Assembly: GCA_030428125.1 (NCBI GenBank)
Contig: JAUIBF010000003.1
Span: 65,516 to 129,515 of the forward strand
DNA from: a bacterium
GTDB taxonomy: Bacteria; Patescibacteriota; Saccharimonadia; Saccharimonadales; SZUA-47
Direction of reading: 5' to 3'
DNA length: 64,000 bases
Part shown: positions 3-34,865 of the stretch, piece after piece
Position numbering within the stretch: the stretch's first letter is position 1
Layout: every line of letters begins with the position of its first letter
Position numbers and translations under genes: made by a program
Notes under the pieces: model-generated
Database searches by the model: none
Told to the model about the DNA's origin: nothing
What the model saw: the letters and a program-made list of their open reading frames with translations, nothing else

Positions 3-497
3 GTTAAATTTTTCCACACCAAAAACAAGCAACCGATAAATATCGCAAAAATTGAATCATTATTCCGAGACCTACATAAAGATTACATACATGTCAGAAA
101 AAACTGGAAGGATTTGCGCTATCCATTCATGTGGACGATGGTGATGAACTTCACGGAAATTTTAACCATTTTCATCGTGTACTTATCTTTTGGAGAACTG
201 GTAAATCCCGGAGCTATAATTATCAGCTATGCTGTTGCTAACATGGCAGGACTTGTCGCTGTGTTGCCTGGTGGAGTAGGTGTTTACGAAGGATTAATGA
301 CAGCCGTGATGGCCAGTGCTGGCGTAAATAAAGTATTAGCCTTGTCCGCGACTGTTGTGTATCGAGTTCTGAATATGGCTCTATTTTTACCTCCAGGTTA
401 TTTCTTATACCAAAGAGCGCTGCGTGATATGGATGTAGAATCTGAAGATATTCCTGGAGTAGGCGAGGAGGAAGATGGAACCGATATTCTCAGTTAG
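3..497 (+). CDS. C-terminal part of a flippase-like / UPF0104 (lysyl-PG synthase TM region family) membrane protein; 5' end lies outside the window
   Basis: The frame is open from base 3, with no stop before the TTG listed at 114. It has hydrophobic helices, the family-typical LPGGVGVYEG motif and an acidic tail. Confidence 0.5.
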   Translation, partial: VKFFHTKNKQPINIAKIESLFRDLHKDYIHVRKNWKDLRYPFMWTMVMNFTEILTIFIVYLSFGELVNPGAIIISYAVANMAGLVAVLPGGVGVYEGLMTAVMASAGVNKVLALSATVVYRVLNMALFLPPGYFLYQRALRDMDVESEDIPGVGEEEDGTDILS

Positions 498-1584
498 TGA
501 AGCTGTAGCTGTAATCAATCAGACTTTCGATAATACTTATCCAACAATTACTGTCGTAGGTGAACTATCGCAGTTCAAAATCGCCAAAGAACGCTGGGTG
601 TATGCAGACATCAAAGATGACACTGCTAAGCTTAGACTTTTCGGGACCGTATACCAGTTACCAGCTCCGATGGAAGATGGAATGATGGTTGAGGTGATAG
701 CAGAGCCACGACTACATCCACAATTCGGCTTCAGCCTGAATATTCGAAACATTCGTCCTGTTGGTGAAGGAAGCATAAAGAAAGCATCGGACTTGCTGCT
801 AGCGAAACTCACAAAAGAAGGACTGTTTTCGGAAGAACGTAAAAGAACAGTCCCGTACGGTCCCGAACGGATTGGATTAATAGCCTCCGAAGAGTCTGCT
901 GCTTACAGCGATTTTATAAAGATTTTAAATACACGCTGGGTAGGAGTTGAAGTTGAGCTAGTAAACGTAACGGTGCAGGGCGAATCAGCTCCGCAATCAG
1001 TTATAGAGGGAATTAATCATTTTACCCAAGAGTCAGATCCACCAGAAGTATTAGTAATTATTCGTGGTGGTGGTAGTGCAGATGACCTGGCTGCGTTCAG
1101 TACTGAGCAGGTCACTCGTGCAGTCGCTGGCAGTAGGATACCGACAGTCGTGGCGATAGGTCACGAGAACGATACCGCCCTAGCAGAACTAGCAGCGGAC
1201 ATGCGCGCAAGCACACCCAGTAATGCTGCAGAACTATTGTTTCCAGATAAAAGGGAATACGCATCAAGACTTAGTCAAAATCTCAAGTCTCTTAAATCAG
1301 CTGTTGATTATGAGCTAGAAACTAGAAAAGAAGATTTGATTCAGAAAACAGATATGCTTAATCAATCGGCGTTAAACTATATAGAAAACAAGAAGCTGAA
1401 GCTAGAGAGCCTCGATAATTTACTAGAAAGTGTGCACCCTAAGGCGACCTTGAAGCGTGGCTACGCAATCGTTGAATCTGGGGGTAAGTTAATATCATCA
1501 GTCAAACAGGCTAAAAAAGGCGATAAGTTACATGTGACGCTAAAAGACGGCAAAGTAATAACTAATGTAGAAGAGGTACAATAA
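475..1584 (+). CDS. xseA: exodeoxyribonuclease VII large subunit
   Basis: 369 aa with an N-terminal OB-fold-like region (VVGELSQFK), a catalytic core (IIRGGGSADDL..GHENDT) and a coiled-coil tail. It is followed immediately by xseB. Confidence 0.9.
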   Translation: MEPIFSVSEAVAVINQTFDNTYPTITVVGELSQFKIAKERWVYADIKDDTAKLRLFGTVYQLPAPMEDGMMVEVIAEPRLHPQFGFSLNIRNIRPVGEGSIKKASDLLLAKLTKEGLFSEERKRTVPYGPERIGLIASEESAAYSDFIKILNTRWVGVEVELVNVTVQGESAPQSVIEGINHFTQESDPPEVLVIIRGGGSADDLAAFSTEQVTRAVAGSRIPTVVAIGHENDTALAELAADMRASTPSNAAELLFPDKREYASRLSQNLKSLKSAVDYELETRKEDLIQKTDMLNQSALNYIENKKLKLESLDNLLESVHPKATLKRGYAIVESGGKLISSVKQAKKGDKLHVTLKDGKVITNVEEVQ

Positions 1585-3262: not shown

Positions 3263-3949
3263 ATGAAGCAAATTCAACACTCAATTGAGCCAGAGTCTAG
3301 ATTTGATGATTCAAAGCTAGTTTTTATGCTTGGTGAAGAGCTTAAAAAACCCCTGACAGCTATCAAAATATTGGCTGAAAGTTCAGGGGATAGTTCTGTG
3401 CAGTTAGAAGCACGAAAGGCGCTGCGTACCGTCGATAATGTGCTTTATTATCAACAAATAGCATCAAGGCAAACGCAGCTTAAGCTCACAACCGTTCATG
3501 CGGGTAGCACATTAACCAACGTTTCACATTCTCTAGTGCCACTTTCTTTAGAGAAAGGCTGCGAAACGGAGATTCAAATTCAATCCGGAATATCACCTGT
3601 ACATGCCGACCCGGGTATTTTAAAGTCGGGAATAGAAAGCCTCTGGCAGGCAGTAATTGGCATGACTTCCAAGCCGTCTACAGTTAGCTGGCAAGTTTAC
3701 AGGTCTCCTAAAGGCGTCAGGATTGTCGTCGTGAATAGTAGTCTGGACTTATCAAAAGTGAACTTAAGTACCGTAACAGTGGGCAAAGCATCTCAGCCTT
3801 TTAAAGGCGTTTCAGGTCCTGCCACAGACTTAGTAACAGCTCAAAGCTTATTTACTGCAATGGGAGCGAAATTATCCAAAGTCAGAAAAGACGGTCTAGA
3901 AGGCCTAGCAATTACTTTACCAGTAAGCATGCAGCTCGAGTTGGTTTAG
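3263..3949 (+). CDS. degenerate histidine-kinase-like protein (pseudokinase; H-box His replaced by Glu)
   Basis: The H-box-like MLGEELKKPLTAI stands where a kinase has SHELRTPLTAI. The N-box (SLWQAVIGMT), G1 (VVNSSLDL) and G2 (SGPATDLV) positions lack the ATP-binding Asn and Gly residues. No TM segment. Confidence 0.55.
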   Translation: MKQIQHSIEPESRFDDSKLVFMLGEELKKPLTAIKILAESSGDSSVQLEARKALRTVDNVLYYQQIASRQTQLKLTTVHAGSTLTNVSHSLVPLSLEKGCETEIQIQSGISPVHADPGILKSGIESLWQAVIGMTSKPSTVSWQVYRSPKGVRIVVVNSSLDLSKVNLSTVTVGKASQPFKGVSGPATDLVTAQSLFTAMGAKLSKVRKDGLEGLAITLPVSMQLELV

Positions 3950-3951
3950 CC

Positions 3952-4329
3952 ATGAAAAACGTACTTATTATTGAGCCCGATAGAACTATTGCCAAATGTA
4001 TTAAAGACGAGCTGGGGAAGAGGTCTATCAGTTCAAAAATGGTAAACAACGCAGCAGAAGCTATTACAGTTGCGGATGAGCAAAAACCAGACGCAGTAAT
4101 AACCGAACTATCACTTGCTGGACACAGTGGCACAGAGTTTATATATGAATTCAGGACATACGCTGATTGGCTGGAAATACCCCTGATAATCTATAGTTCA
4201 ATGAAAATTCCTGAACAGGTTGAAAATTCTAATGATTGGAAAAAGCTAAATATCTCAGGATTTTTTTATAAACCTGAAGAATCATTGGATCAGCTAGCTA
4301 ATTCGGTCGAATCTTTACTGGAAAGTTAA
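3952..4329 (+). CDS. receiver-domain-like protein with Glu at the phospho-acceptor position
   Basis: 125 aa with REC topology: VLIIEPD, PDAVITELSLAGHSG (canonical PDLVLLDLxMPGMDG), IIYSS and FFYKP (Lys retained). It starts 3 nt after the kinase-like ORF. Confidence 0.65.
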   Translation: MKNVLIIEPDRTIAKCIKDELGKRSISSKMVNNAAEAITVADEQKPDAVITELSLAGHSGTEFIYEFRTYADWLEIPLIIYSSMKIPEQVENSNDWKKLNISGFFYKPEESLDQLANSVESLLES

Positions 4330-5900: not shown

Positions 5901-5929
5901 TTGACAAAAACGCTAATGTTTGCTATAAT
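5901..5929 (+). promoter_or_regulatory. near-consensus sigma70-type promoter (TTGACA-N17-TATAAT)
   Basis: TTGACA at 5901-5906 and TATAAT at 5924-5929. The GTG start at 5936 is only 6 nt downstream of the -10. Confidence 0.55.
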
Positions 5930-5935
5930 AACAGC

Positions 5936-6648: not shown

Positions 6649-7941
6649 ATGGCAGATAAAGATAAAGTTTCACTTGAAGACATTGTTAGTCTATGTAAAC
6701 GCCGGGGATTTATATTCCAGGGCTCTGAGGTATATGGTGGTCTAGCAGGCACGTGGGACTATGGCCCGCTTGGTGTGACTTTGAAGAAAAACTTGATGAA
6801 CTTATGGTGGAAGACTTTTGTCGAAGACCGCGATGACATGGTTGGTGTAGACGCTGCAATCTTGATGAATCCTAAAACTTGGCAGGCAAGTGGTCACGTC
6901 GATACTTTCACCGACCCATTAGTGGAATGTTCCAACTGCAAAGGCCGATTCCGCGAAGATAAAATTGACACTAGCAAATGTCCGGCTTGTGGAGAAAAAG
7001 ATTCATTTGGTGAAGCACGTCAGTTCAACTTGATGTTTGAAACTATTGCAGGGCCAGTTGCAGATGACGACAGCAAAGTTTATATCCGACCTGAAACAGC
7101 ACAAGGTATTTTCACGAACTTTAAAAATGTAGTCGACACACTTTATCCAGAAGTGCCATTTGGTATCGCTCAAGCCGGTAAAGCATTTCGTAATGAAATT
7201 AGTCCGCGAGATTTTGTATTCCGTTCTAGAGAATTTGAACAGATGGAAATCGAATACTTCATCAATGAGTCTGATTGGGAAAGGTTATTCGAGCAGTGGA
7301 GGGCGGACATCAAAGCTTTCTTGGCAGAAGCCGGTGTGAATGCTGAGCAAGTTCATGAACTCGAAGTCCCCGCAGATGACCTAGCACACTATTCGAAAAG
7401 AACAATTGACTATGAGTTCGAATATCCACACGGGAAAGATGAATTGCTGGGACTTGCATACCGAACAGATTTTGATTTAGGCAACATACAACGGGCAAGT
7501 GGAAAGAAAATGGAGTACCGACCTAAAGATGGTAGTCCGGCATTCGTACCACACGTGATAGAACCAAGTTTCGGGGTAGAGCGTCTAGTAATGGCAGTGC
7601 TTTGTAGTGCATATTCTGAAGATGAACAGAACGGTGAAAAACGAGTATATCTAAAGCTTCCTGAAAACATCGCACCAGTAAAATACTGCGTATCGCCATT
7701 ACTAAAAAATAAGACAGAACTGGTTGAAAAGGCACGAGAAGTATATACGAAGCTCCGAGAAAACAATTCAGTCATGTGGGATGACAACGGAAACATCGGT
7801 AAACGCTATCGCCGTCAGGATGAAATCGGAACCCCATACTGCGTAGTAATCGACTTTGACACATTAGAAGACGGCACTGTGACTGTAAGGGACCGTGACA
7901 CCACAGAACAAAAACGAGTAAAGATTGAAGACTTAATCTAG
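6649..7941 (+). CDS. glyQS: glycine--tRNA ligase (homodimeric class II type)
   Basis: RRGFIFQGSEVYGGLAGTWDYGPLG, RPETAQGIF, FRNEISPR and a C-terminal anticodon-binding domain; 430 aa. Confidence 0.93.
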   Translation: MADKDKVSLEDIVSLCKRRGFIFQGSEVYGGLAGTWDYGPLGVTLKKNLMNLWWKTFVEDRDDMVGVDAAILMNPKTWQASGHVDTFTDPLVECSNCKGRFREDKIDTSKCPACGEKDSFGEARQFNLMFETIAGPVADDDSKVYIRPETAQGIFTNFKNVVDTLYPEVPFGIAQAGKAFRNEISPRDFVFRSREFEQMEIEYFINESDWERLFEQWRADIKAFLAEAGVNAEQVHELEVPADDLAHYSKRTIDYEFEYPHGKDELLGLAYRTDFDLGNIQRASGKKMEYRPKDGSPAFVPHVIEPSFGVERLVMAVLCSAYSEDEQNGEKRVYLKLPENIAPVKYCVSPLLKNKTELVEKAREVYTKLRENNSVMWDDNGNIGKRYRRQDEIGTPYCVVIDFDTLEDGTVTVRDRDTTEQKRVKIEDLI

Positions 7942-31768: not shown

Positions 31769-32623
31769 TTATTTTAGCTGCCATAACCCCAACGAGTCTT
31801 GGGTGATTTTTCCCTGAATCTCTAGCATTGTTAGATGAGTTTGGAGTTCTGTTGTCTTGAGCTTTGTTTCTGCTTGCAAGGTATCAGGATCATTTAACCC
31901 TTTAGCTATTTTCTGCAGGATTAACGTCTCTGCTTCGTTCTCGCCAGCTAAATCTAGCTTTTGCTGACTAGGTTTTGAATTGATACCTAAGGCGCTAAGC
32001 ACGTCCGATGCTTCGGTAACCACTTTCGCCCCTCTTTTGAGTAGTTGATTTGTGCCCTCGCTCATAGGACTCGTCGTGTTACCGGGTACAGCAAAGACTG
32101 GTATTCCTAGCTCCCGTGCATTACGGGCAGTATTCAAACTACCAGACTTGTCGGTTGCCTCAGGGATTACTACGGCGTCGCATAGGGTGGCAACTATACG
32201 GTTTCGTTCTAGAAATTTAACTCTTGGTGGCATATTTTTGGGCTGGACTTCCGTTAAAAGAGCGCCTCTTTGTTCTAATATTCGCTCCGCTATCATCCGA
32301 TTGGTCGCTGGGTAACCAGTAGGTAAATCAGGCAGTACAGCTATAGTAGATCCACCAGCATCCAAACAGGCTTTATGGGCCAGACTATCGATGCCTAATG
32401 CCAATCCACTAACAATAATCACACCCTCCCTTGCTAGTCCCTGAGTGAGCTTTTCGGTCATCATCTTGCCGTAAGCAGTCGGTTTCCTGGTTCCAACAAC
32501 AGCTACAAACTTGTGATTAACTAGGTCATTTATGTCCACTCCACTAAAAGTCAACTCACCAACTGATTTGTCTAACCTGTTCAACTTATGTTTTAACTGG
32601 GGTGAAAGCTTAAGCTTTTTCAT
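31769..32623 (-). CDS. dprA: DNA-processing protein DprA
   Basis: Rossmann-like VAVVGTRKPTAYG...IVSGLALGIDSLAHKA...VLP, with a C-terminal winged-helix-like tail. Confidence 0.9.
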   Translation of the reverse strand: MKKLKLSPQLKHKLNRLDKSVGELTFSGVDINDLVNHKFVAVVGTRKPTAYGKMMTEKLTQGLAREGVIIVSGLALGIDSLAHKACLDAGGSTIAVLPDLPTGYPATNRMIAERILEQRGALLTEVQPKNMPPRVKFLERNRIVATLCDAVVIPEATDKSGSLNTARNARELGIPVFAVPGNTTSPMSEGTNQLLKRGAKVVTEASDVLSALGINSKPSQQKLDLAGENEAETLILQKIAKGLNDPDTLQAETKLKTTELQTHLTMLEIQGKITQDSLGLWQLK

Positions 32624-32662
32624 AATATATACTTGTCAAACTCTCAAAAATATAAAATAGTA

Positions 32663-32690
32663 TTGACTTATGACATATTTTTGCTATAAT
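32663..32690 (+). promoter_or_regulatory. strong promoter with no ORF behind it (TTGACT-N16-TATAAT)
   Basis: TTGACT at 32663-32668 and TATAAT at 32685-32690. The -10 context GCTATAATAAC is identical to that of the 5901 promoter. Confidence 0.5.
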
Positions 32691-32696
32691 AACAAC

Positions 32697-33030
32697 TTGT
32701 AAGCGTACATTTGAGACGCATTACGTACCTTTACCCCTAAATTCTAACACTAAAAAAGTATTAGAATTTAAGTTTTACAACTGCTAGCAAGTCGTTGTTA
32801 CCCTCCACGCCTTTTAGCTCTTACCCTAGAGGTAAAAGTTGTAAAACACTTATCCCCTTTAACCCCGTTTCCCCCTCTCGTTTTATTTGAGTTTTGGGCT
32901 CGGAAATCGGACATACCTTATGGATGGGCTTTGTGCACTTTTGCGAGACTGCATAAAGATAAGCCTTCAAGGTGGGTTGAAGGGTGTAAAAGGCCTACAG
33001 CGGTGCCCACCCCCTCTGTAGGCCTTTTAC
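32697..33030 (+). ncRNA. candidate structured RNA or long cis-regulatory leader (family unknown)
   Basis: About 334 nt with no ORF of 60 codons or more. Hairpins are AATTCTAA/TTAGAATT, GTTTTACAACT/AGTTGTAAAAC (11 bp), CCTTCAA/TTGAAGG with loop GGTGGG, and GTAAAAGGCCTACAG/CTGTAGGCCTTTTAC (15 bp), whose loop contains CCCACC. Confidence 0.3.
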
Positions 33031-33074
33031 ATTTAAGAAGAAAAAACATTTTACTTATGCTTGCATTATAGTTC

Positions 33075-33962
33075 GTGCTACCTGATAGTATGCGCATGGC
33101 ATTTGATTCAACTGGTGAGATTTCATGGGAAATCCCTGATGGTTATTATGAAAATATTGCGCAAAGTGATGTTAGTAGCTTCGTGCATTTAACTGGTCGC
33201 TTAGCCTTGGCACCTATTTCTATTGCAAGATTTGGCCGTCCAGTTATCGATACAACAGAGGCATTTGAAGAAGCTAGACCACAATTTGGTGATGGAAATA
33301 TTATTATCGCAAGCACACACCGTAGTGACTGGGAAACGGTTTTACAGCCTGCAGTTTTTGAGAGAGTAGGTCTTCATCATGCGAGACCTATCGCTAAGTT
33401 AGAGCCGATGTTTCAGCCAAGGTGGATGAGATACGTAATGCATAAACTCGGTGCATATGCAGTAGATAAGCGTCCAGGCCATTCTGACAATCTAGGTTTA
33501 CAAACCGCAGCAAGTGGGATTTTGCAGAGGGGCGGGATTCTAACCTACTACATGGAGGGCGCAAGAATGACTGAAAATCCTAATATTGTCGAGTCAGTAA
33601 AGCCTGGTGGTGTAATTTCTGCCACAGTCAATGATAGTTTGGTGGTGCCTACATCTTTTGCTGGAATATCAAAACTTACAGAGGGCAAAGGTGAAGATAA
33701 AATAAATGTGGCAAGGGATGAGCCTAGTATGTTCGGCAGGCAGAGAAAGCTTGTTGCCGCTTTCGGAGATCCATACAGATTAGAACAGCCCGGTTTTGAT
33801 GTAGATATGCTTCTTGCTAACCCGCGCAAACTCGACAAGTCTCAAAGAGGTGAATACTTTGACTATTTACGAGAGCAATCAGAGGTTGTACGAGTGTCTA
33901 TGCAAACAGTTCTAGACCGAGCTTATGAACTTCGTGGTTCGTATCTAGAGCAAATAGCGTAA
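33075..33962 (+). CDS. PlsC/LPLAT-like acyltransferase
   Basis: HRSDWE (an HX4D/E-like block) and YMEGARM (an FPEGTR-like block). The start is uncertain: GTG at 33075, or ATG at 33090 or 33096. Confidence 0.5.
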   Translation: MLPDSMRMAFDSTGEISWEIPDGYYENIAQSDVSSFVHLTGRLALAPISIARFGRPVIDTTEAFEEARPQFGDGNIIIASTHRSDWETVLQPAVFERVGLHHARPIAKLEPMFQPRWMRYVMHKLGAYAVDKRPGHSDNLGLQTAASGILQRGGILTYYMEGARMTENPNIVESVKPGGVISATVNDSLVVPTSFAGISKLTEGKGEDKINVARDEPSMFGRQRKLVAAFGDPYRLEQPGFDVDMLLANPRKLDKSQRGEYFDYLREQSEVVRVSMQTVLDRAYELRGSYLEQIA

Positions 33963-34243: not shown

Positions 34244-34865
34244 TCGAGTGTTCGGACAAAGGTCCAGCGCTGCGCTCGTCTAAAATAGTGCAAACTTCGT
34301 TCAAAATCTTATGAATATTTGGTTTTTCCTTGTCGGAAAAATCCTGCAATACAAAGTCTGCGCTGTCAATTTGTGGAGGAGATTTCGGGCCTACGCCTAC
34401 CCTGACTCGTGCAAAATCGTCACCAATTAAACTTTTTAGAGATTTTATACCGTTATGGCCGGCGGACCCACCCCCTAGCCTGGTCCTGATGGTCCCAAAA
34501 TTTACGTCTAGTTCGTCGTAAACAGCAGTCGTATCAGAGTTGTATAGCCGATAAAATTTTTGAATTTTTTGCGCTGCTTCACCACTGTTGTTCATAAAAG
34601 TCGTAGGTTTGGCCAAAATGACTTTAGTTGAGCCTACCATTCCCTCGCTCATCAGGCATTTTAAGTCTTTTTTTTCTGTCCAGTTAGAGAAATCGTGCGT
34701 CGATTGGTACTTATCTAGCGCCATAAACCCTAGGTTGTGACGGTTTGCCGAGTATTTCTTGCCTGGATTGCCGAGGCCGATAACTAGAATTGTCGAAGAA
34801 TTGCCAATTGTATAAAACGGCTGCGCGTCATAAAAGTTAGTTTTCTTACGATCAAATAAGCCCAT
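34227..34865 (-). CDS. pth: peptidyl-tRNA hydrolase
   Basis: LVIGLGNPGKKYSANRHNLGF, GGGSAGHNGIKS. Confidence 0.92.
   Translation of the reverse strand: MGLFDRKKTNFYDAQPFYTIGNSSTILVIGLGNPGKKYSANRHNLGFMALDKYQSTHDFSNWTEKKDLKCLMSEGMVGSTKVILAKPTTFMNNSGEAAQKIQKFYRLYNSDTTAVYDELDVNFGTIRTRLGGGSAGHNGIKSLKSLIGDDFARVRVGVGPKSPPQIDSADFVLQDFSDKEKPNIHKILNEVCTILDERSAGPLSEHSITIDL

Follow-up and report, generated by a model that had tools for sequence, protein, structure and literature searches.

What does the gap at positions 32624-33074 of a Saccharibacteria chromosome segment encode, where a near-consensus promoter leads into a series of stems? The segment, here called the window, is a stretch of 64,000 nucleotides (nt) from contig JAUIBF010000003.1 (positions 65,516 to 129,515; assembly GCA_030428125.1), and the gap separates dprA (31769-32623, minus strand; Pfam DNA_processg_A domain) from an open reading frame (ORF) for a PlsC-type acyltransferase (33075-33962, plus strand). 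The proteins encoded on either side have their best named relatives in Saccharibacteria. An earlier note on this DNA had proposed an undescribed structured RNA or a cis-regulatory leader of the acyltransferase gene. Comparison with relatives showed that positions 32695-33035 of the plus strand form a transcription unit of their own, a gene whose product is a structured non-coding RNA of ~340 nt with predicted ends, and that this RNA belongs to a previously undescribed family that is vertically inherited at the dprA/RNA/pth locus of Saccharibacteria. We are highly confident that gene and family are new. As to function, we infer, with a probability of roughly 0.6, that the RNA acts in trans, that its C-rich strands bind a conserved cellular partner and that phages have copied the module carrying them.

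With the acyltransferase as query, three genome loci and several metagenome contigs were found, all with dprA and a gap of 500-900 nt. The gap sequence was much better conserved than the flanking proteins (43-56% identical). It combined invariant blocks with stems that co-vary, and its large insertions fell at fixed sites. A degenerate pattern of the 3′ end matched 46 metagenome contigs, ~30 of which hold the whole element according to nhmmer. Homologues of DprA led to more distant genomes, one of them labelled Candidatus Saccharimonas, with a form of ~300 nt at the same place. For the 5′ part we built a covariance model, R1, from nine main-clade 5′ halves with the window left out. R1 found 31 host loci without a false-positive locus and recognized the window at 32695-32823 with E = 4.7e-4; at E ≤ 0.01 it missed L003 and L005, both of which were detected by nhmmer, and the two methods together cover every true locus without any GC-rich false positive. 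The other ~16 pattern matches were rejected as chance matches in GC-rich coding sequence, matched by neither method. In total, ~34 Saccharibacteria contigs carry a homologue, and the family ranges in length from 290 to 500 nt. Contig L003 (JBPOIO010000025.1) is labelled Candidatus Magasanikiibacteriota; its TopA is 74% identical to that of the window and it has the same dprA-RNA-acyltransferase locus, so it is likely mis-binned or mislabelled. The 4.4-kb contig L055, which was excluded from the counts, holds two inverted copies of the RNA (335-884, plus strand, and 3674-4213, minus strand) with many single-base indels, and this double copy is probably an assembly or sequencing artefact.

The gene order proved to be fixed. 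In all loci that were informative in tblastn searches, topA and dprA lie on one strand, the RNA is divergent from dprA, and pth is convergent downstream, and this order is kept even where DprA is only 42-55% identical to that of the window. The distance from the end of the RNA to the end of pth is 39-62 nt in L013, L024, L029, L032, L036, L040, L049 and L054, and in many contigs the terminal hairpin of the RNA directly adjoins the 3′ end of pth.

The limits of the gene in the window are as follows.

32663-32668, plus strand: −35 hexamer TTGACT, from a promoter scan.
32682-32690, plus strand: extended −10 element TGcTATAAT (TATAAT at 32685-32690), its TG flagged by the promoter scan.
32695-33035, plus strand: RNA gene of ~340 nt, identified by the nhmmer profile and R1, with ends deduced from the promoter and the terminal hairpin.

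The promoter TTGACT-N16-TATAAT named in the earlier note is thus present and near-consensus, scoring 11/12 with its 16-nt spacer and, in addition, the TG extension. It is followed by TTG-TAA, as had been stated, and not by a start codon. In relatives the plus-strand promoter reads TATTGAC, a 17-nt spacer and TGCTAAAAT, and TATTGAC is kept at the same position in all host homologues. The −10 context was also correctly said to be shared with the 5901 promoter, as GCTATAATAAC occurs in the window only at 5922 and 32683, with 0.03 occurrences expected by chance; the second copy spans 5922-5932. The description as highly structured was borne out as well, both strands folding far better than shuffled sequences (z = −5.8 on the plus strand and −4.5 on the minus strand). 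We assign the RNA to the plus strand because of the conserved plus-strand promoter and the U tract after the last hairpin. In agreement with this assignment, G-U pairs are frequent, and those of P1, P6 and P10 fit the plus strand only.

The comparison further showed a predicted fold of two parts, a 5′ module (P1, J1/2, P2 and P3, the last enclosing P4 and P5) and a 3′ domain closed by P6 and ending in P10. Compensatory changes support six of the predicted helices: P1, P2, P3, P4, the long-range P6 and the terminal P10. The elements of the 5′ module, with change counts from 38 host and phage sequences, are the following.

32699-32724, plus strand: hairpin P1, GUAAGCGU ... ACGCAUUAC; 8/9 pairs change on both sides, and per-sequence folds agree.
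32725-32738, plus strand: J1/2, an invariant C-rich single strand, here GUACCUUUACCCCU; invariant in two alignments and unchanged in the phage mini-RNAs.
32739-32769, plus strand: hairpin P2, AAUUCUAACAC ... GUAUUAGAAUU; 96% of cells paired, 5/6 modelled pairs changing on both sides.
32772-32782, plus strand: 5′ strand of P3, GUUUUACAACU, pairing with 32837-32847.
32783-32818, plus strand: hairpin P4, presenting loop L4; 7/7 outer and 2/4 inner pairs change on both sides.
32820-32836, plus strand: P5, a small hairpin UUACC-CUAGA-GGUAA, from segment comparison.
32837-32847, plus strand: 3′ strand of P3, AGUUGUAAAAC, pairing with 32772-32782.

In the R1-made alignment of these sequences, 90% of the cells of the 5′ module were paired, compared to 27-37% when the partner strand was slid, and 22 of the 26 pairs changed on both sides. 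The covariation score was 0.479, compared to 0.03-0.07 in the controls, and none of 500 shuffles scored as high. An alignment made by R1 leans towards R1's own structure; it was used because a plain, non-structural MAFFT alignment of the 5′ part led RNAalifold to predict no pairs. We regard the covariation signal as real since both the slid controls and the folds of single sequences argue for it. Across the family, 9 of 11 pairs of P3 changed on both sides in the joined alignment described below, for example as GUUUAAGAG/CUCUUAAAC, GCUCAGG/CCUGGGC and GCGCAC/GUGCGU.

Two segments of the 5′ module behave in the opposite way. J1/2 has the invariant core ACCUUAUACCCCC, reads ACCUUUACCCC at 32727-32737 of the window and follows the family consensus RYACCUUAUACCCCC(A/U)AU, and loop L4 (UACCCUCCAC, 32799-32808) is invariant in hosts and phages. 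A pairing of J1/2 with GGGUGUAA after P6 was considered and rejected: it has 8/8 pairs in 18 main-clade sequences, and variants drop to 4-7/8 without compensation. The lengths of hairpins vary among relatives at four fixed sites, namely the P2 apex, P5, the linker between P3 and P6, and the position just before P10. P5, which is a branched domain of 100-220 nt in other clades, is a variable-length site of the kind typical of structured RNAs.

These results agree only in part with the stems read from the window by itself. The proposed stems AATTCTAA/TTAGAATT and GTTTTACAACT/AGTTGTAAAAC correspond to P2 and P3, respectively, and co-vary across relatives. The proposed first stem GTAAGCGTAC/GTACCTTTAC does not hold; the local hairpin P1 (GUAAGCGU/ACGCAUUAC) forms instead, and ACCUUUACCCC is conserved as a single strand. 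Of the two TTACCCT copies, the first is the invariant loop UACCCUCCAC and the second forms a small clade-specific hairpin with AGAGGTAA.

For the long-range pairings, three pieces of each locus (the P3 5′ strand as defined by R1, the stretch preceding CCCUUUAA, and the 3′ terminus) were joined and aligned with MAFFT. In this alignment 92% of the cells of P3, P6 and P10 taken together were paired, and changes on both sides affected 18 of 35 pairs; P3 of the window clade lies one column off register here, so that its pairing is understated. The 3′ domain comprises the following elements.

32855-32864, plus strand: 5′ strand of P6, CCCUUUAACC, in long-range pairing with 32975-32984; 100% of cells paired in 28 sequences.
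32865-32970, plus strand: inner part of the 3′ domain; one of its hairpins, with loop UUUUGCGAGA, co-varies (RNAalifold, 7 window-clade sequences).
32971-32976, plus strand: GGUGGG, proposed 5′ strand of a pseudoknot, complementary to CCCACC of L10.
32975-32984, plus strand: 3′ strand of P6, GGUUGAAGGG, from the joined alignment and RNAalifold of the window clade.
32985-33031, plus strand: terminal hairpin P10 with invariant loop L10, followed by a U-rich tail; 8/10 pairs change on both sides, 99% of cells paired.

Family-wide, P6 is formed by CCCUUUAA (32855-32862) pairing with UUGAAGGG. In the distant genomes L057, L058 and L060, AA/UU is replaced by GU/AU, giving CCCUUUGU with AUGAAGGG through one compensatory and two one-sided changes. 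The local hairpin CCUUCAA-GGUGGG-UUGAAGG, listed in the earlier note, can be drawn in the window clade only; across the family its place is taken by the long-range P6, which RNAalifold picks over the hairpin even within that clade. The other interior helices are clade-specific and were resolved within clades, the architecture of other clades being different; in the 7 window-clade sequences RNAalifold gave 13 pairs with double changes overall. The complementarity of GGUGGG (32971-32976) to CCCACC (33006-33011) had been recognized correctly, and both strands are invariant in all relatives. A 6-bp pseudoknot between them is plausible, and owing to this invariance covariation neither supports nor refutes it.

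The 15-bp terminal stem that had been described is real as well; as P10 it comprises 15-16 bp at 32985-33031 and co-varies. CCCACC lies inside its loop L10 (GCGGUGCCCACCCCCUC, 33000-33016). P10 is likely a terminator, judged from its covarying stem of 10-16 bp and from the tail that follows it, which is UUUU(A)... in most relatives (UUUUAGG or UUUUUAUUU). A simple terminator scan made no call, the 15-nt loop exceeding its 8-nt limit, and L057-L060 have a second, classical terminator after P10. At the variable site before P10, between GGGUGUA and the hairpin, L001 (2728-2763) and L007 (1125-1160; coordinates approximate), otherwise different members, share an identical 36-nt hairpin insert, AUCUGUUGGGAUGUCCAUUGAGUGACGUCCCUAGAU; L019, L027, L035 and L073 carry unrelated hairpins at the same site.

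A scan of IMG/VR with the J1/2 and L4 patterns showed that the RNA also occurs in seven phage contigs of 33-41 kb. Six of them have the 5′ module only, as a mini-RNA of ~130 nt that R1 matched with E = 2e-7 to 1e-5, and one has a full-length copy.

L067, 852-966, minus strand: mini-RNA.
L068, 1098-1200, minus strand: mini-RNA.
L069, 3894-4008, plus strand: mini-RNA.
L070, 505-619, plus strand: mini-RNA.
L071, 5817-5926, minus strand: mini-RNA.
L072, 4154-4268, plus strand: mini-RNA.
L073, 7976-8370, plus strand: full-length copy with a host-type promoter, on a phage of the same type as L072.

Each mini-RNA has its own promoter, P1, J1/2, P2, a stem enclosing the L4-bearing hairpin, and a U-run terminator. 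The stems differ from those of every host yet stay paired, and J1/2 and L4 are identical. The mini-RNA is usually located between the lysis genes and a recombination module (RecT or Erf, exonuclease). Phage identity follows from PHROGs matches for L067, L069, L071 and L072, and for L073 from homology to the FtsK/exonuclease fusion and RecT of L072; these contigs encode endolysin, RecT- or Erf-type annealing proteins, exonucleases, an HNH endonuclease and an FtsK-like protein, and none of host dprA, topA and pth is present on them. L073 has, in addition, a separate hairpin, GACGUG-CGGUGCCCACCCCCU-CACGUC (6858-6900, minus strand), located ~190 nt upstream of recT. Its loop is exactly that of L10 but its stem is unrelated, which suggests that L10 is a recognition element by itself.

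How might such an RNA work? The family comparison shows that the predicted helices vary freely by compensatory change and that the C-rich elements predicted to be unpaired, J1/2, L4 and L10, are invariant. These strands, being fixed while their surroundings change, are best understood as a contact surface, and the 5′ module, which phages keep alone, as an autonomous functional unit. Stretches of 10-17 nt that stay invariant across lineages with ~42% identical DprA suggest a very conserved partner, such as a protein or the machinery of translation or transcription, and speak less for ordinary mRNA targets. In our model the RNA would act in trans, with the 5′ module as the working surface that presents J1/2 and L4 to this partner. 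Candidates for the partner are a protein, the ribosome and some other conserved RNA that is rich in G, and the RNA would bind, titrate or scaffold it; CCUCC, the anti-Shine-Dalgarno core, lies within L4 and is regarded as a lead only. The 3′ domain would fold via P6 and the GGUGGG/CCCACC loop pseudoknot and would add a second function or control the first. Phages of these bacteria would encode the bare 5′ module, and in one case the full-length RNA, in order to provide this interaction themselves or take it over.

Several points weigh against this model. The ends of the transcript, its abundance and its action in trans are all deduced from sequence, and the distribution was surveyed within Saccharibacteria and phage contigs. 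G-rich targets complementary to L4, J1/2 and L10, sought in the 64-kb window and 367 kb of loci, yielded only RNA genes or chance matches. RNAalifold of the window clade uses part of GGUGGG for nested pairs instead of the pseudoknot. Moreover, several phage copies lie 0-1 kb from a contig end, which leaves some room for an integration role of the conserved motifs.

A more far-reaching proposal, which we advance tentatively and at slightly less than even odds, is that the family represents a new class of large housekeeping RNA of Saccharibacteria, possibly of the wider Candidate Phyla Radiation (CPR), which would be a ribonucleoprotein core or a ribozyme and whose function phages would take over or replace with a stripped-down 5′ module. 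If true, no system of host-RNA mimicry would have been described before in CPR bacteria and their phages. Saccharibacteria genomes of ~1 Mb have very little spare sequence, and an RNA of 300-500 nt that keeps its consensus promoter, its invariant motifs and its locus throughout the group makes it likely that current annotation has missed a basic function. The phage mini-versions point to the functional module, and at ~130 nt they offer a natural minimal construct for pull-downs, structure determination and genetics in transformable strains. The family also joins the few large bacterial RNAs without known function.

Among the alternatives, a base-pairing regulatory RNA that directs C-rich loops to G-rich Shine-Dalgarno regions, as RsaE/RoxS or the actinobacterial 6C RNA do, survives best. 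It would be a sub-case of our model, and we consider it unlikely. The supported fold does show two or three unpaired C-rich motifs in loops and linkers, so that J1/2, L4 and L10 share this feature of C-rich base-pairing small RNAs; the phage mini-RNA has a fitting size and layout, and the CCUCC of L4 would suit such a role. However, invariance over 10-17 nt at the DprA divergence given above is unusual for mRNA-targeting seeds, complementary sites were not enriched near genes in the available sequence, and the large conserved 3′ domain would be unexplained; it is the degree of invariance and this domain that disfavor the idea. The single 10-nt match, between L10 and the pth mRNA (window 34466-34477, minus strand, in Gly-Gly-Gly codons), was discarded as a chance match, as it is not conserved and the codons differ in other loci. 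Several unpaired C-runs and, for the phage mini-RNA, a similar size are common to this family and to 6C and RsaE/RoxS, but the latter are simple hairpins of 60-120 nt, whereas the host RNA has two domains, 300-500 nt and long-range helices, lacks sequence similarity to them and has no Rfam match to RF01066 (6C) or RsaE.

It is improbable that the conserved blocks are DNA-level signals, that is, a phage attachment site in a stable-RNA-like locus, with the phage copies as attP segments. Stable-RNA genes are common integration sites, and besides the contig-end position of several phage copies this idea could draw on an element downstream of the RNA in L001, L002 and L005 that ends in a repeat of the gene's 3′ terminus, in the manner of an attachment scar. 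Against it, each phage copy forms a full transcription unit, from the promoter through the stems to a U-run terminator, and no neighboring integrase was seen. The stems of these copies, unlike those of any host, stay paired by compensatory change, which only selection at the RNA level explains, and the host helices co-vary throughout. An attachment role in addition to the RNA function is possible.

The downstream element itself is a second conserved sequence of ~110 nt right after the likely terminator of the RNA, GCCCAGUCGCG..CGACCCCCGAACUUC...GCCACAGGCAAU..CACCCUCUAAAGGCUCUUAUUU, and occurs at the following positions.

L001, 2830-2935: second element.
L002, 2195-2300: second element.
L005, 2250-2350: second element.
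L007 and L027: second element, weaker.

It has no Rfam match and is absent from the window; it may represent a further small RNA or a scar left by integration.

We next consider whether the RNA could be a strongly diverged universal RNA, i.e., RNase P RNA, transfer-messenger RNA (tmRNA), signal recognition particle (SRP) RNA or 6S RNA, which we regard as very improbable. Its size of 300-500 nt, strong promoter, single copy and phylum-wide conservation are housekeeping-like, and an Rfam scan of the 64-kb window did not find rnpB, ssrA or ffs. CPR bacteria are, moreover, known to have RNase P RNAs that score below Rfam thresholds; to detect some of them, Lui et al. (2021; PMC8172020) needed bit scores down to 5. 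However, Rfam 15 gave no match to the window at the gathering score, and with E ≤ 10 it gave unrelated sub-threshold matches only for the window region, six host loci, the main-clade locus L011, the minimal form in L058 and the phage copy in L072. RNase P, tmRNA, SRP and 6S RNA were not among the matches listed down to 9.5 bits in four small-region Rfam scans, matches below ~9 bits not being excluded by these scans, and ARAGORN found no tmRNA in the window and 24 homologous loci. The topology argues in the same direction. The covariation-supported fold starts with a local hairpin that takes up the 5′ end and finishes with P10 at the 3′ end; it has neither the closing P1 nor a P4-type helix of RNase P RNA, and the motifs GGAAAGUCC and ACAGNRA-GGCUUA are absent from the sequence. 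A tRNA-like end or tag ORF of tmRNA is lacking, as is domain IV of SRP RNA, for which there was no Rfam match at any threshold applied. Instead of the 6S rod with its central bubble, the fold has multiple domains, 290-500 nt and terminal local hairpins, and a bare phage 5′ module of 130 nt fits none of the universal RNAs. Models and topology therefore agree with the earlier statement that the region cannot be assigned to RNase P, tmRNA, SRP, 6S or a riboswitch, and the recommended Rfam check returned no family for the gap at gathering or lenient thresholds. In literature searches we found no non-coding RNA of this kind described for Saccharibacteria or CPR bacteria; a TM7x transcriptome paper states that small RNAs in Saccharibacteria are not validated. 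With conservation and covarying helices in ~34 host and 7 phage loci and no Rfam, tmRNA or literature match, the proposal of an undescribed structured RNA is supported.

Several known RNAs resemble the family in part. The CPR RNase P RNAs (PMC8172020) are alike in organism group, similar length and escape from default Rfam thresholds, but they retain the RNase P core with P1-P4 and its conserved regions, and RF00010 detects them with low scores, whereas the RNA described here has another topology, no core motifs and no RF00010 match. The raiA motif RNA (RF03072; PMC12968392) is likewise a stand-alone, single-copy structured RNA, classed as trans-acting, with invariant linkers, pseudoknots and optional peripheral stems; it adjoins a competence gene, comFC, as the RNA here adjoins dprA, and its function is unknown despite wide conservation, which applies here as well. 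However, raiA RNA is ~200 nt long, with a closing P1 formed by its 5′ and 3′ ends, the pseudoknots PK1 and PK2 and a UUAGACGUAA linker, and occurs in Bacillota and Actinomycetota (PMC12968392), whereas the Saccharibacteria RNA of 290-500 nt has no closing P1, neither PK1 nor PK2, no UUAGACGUAA linker and no RF03072 match. The likeness to 6S RNA, CsrB/RsmZ and Y RNA, as abundant, stand-alone, promoter-driven RNAs with conserved unpaired elements that would bind and titrate a conserved component, concerns the working model only; the RNA described here lacks the 6S rod with its central bubble, GGA repeats and a Ro-binding stem, and its motifs are C-rich. ROOL, GOLLD and phage tRNA/tmRNA genes are comparable as large structured or host stable RNAs that are also phage-encoded. 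ROOL and GOLLD are, however, mostly borne by phages or prophages without a fixed chromosomal locus, unlike the vertically inherited chromosomal gene with a reduced phage module described here, and Rfam scans gave no sequence or model similarity between them and this RNA.

Of the two explanations offered at the outset, the cis-regulatory leader or riboswitch of the acyltransferase gene, with the terminal hairpin as regulated terminator, is refuted by synteny, and we give it hardly any weight. In the window the RNA lies on the strand of the acyltransferase, ends ~50 nt before its start and has a terminator-like hairpin at its end. Among relatives, however, the downstream gene varies. The 9 acyltransferase homologues all belong to the clade of the window, and the gene is, as judged from the gene order, an insertion peculiar to that clade; in L001, L002, L005, L007 and L008 it is 200-900 nt off or behind other ORFs. 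The next gene in most loci is the convergent pth, the phage copies have no acyltransferase gene, and no riboswitch family of Rfam was matched. Because the arrangement is the same everywhere, with pth downstream and the acyltransferase clade-specific, we consider the RNA to be a gene in its own right. A small protein gene, for example an ORF of 33 codons from the ATG near 32921 or one of 44 codons with a TTG start at 32887-33021, has a practically negligible chance of accounting for the locus. Short ORFs exist on both strands, but relatives preserve neither their start codons nor their frames and lengths (25-109 codons), and the peptides resemble each other only where the RNA blocks are invariant. 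Indel lengths do not keep to multiples of three, and stem changes are pairwise compensatory; the description as ORF-free holds in that the homologues share no conserved ORF.

On the opposite strand, the likely promoter of dprA (ATGTCA, 16-nt spacer, TATATT; 9/12; minus strand, 32624-32662 and 32649-32676) is arranged back-to-back with that of the RNA and overlaps with it, so that binding of RNA polymerase could be shared between the two genes or be a point of competition.

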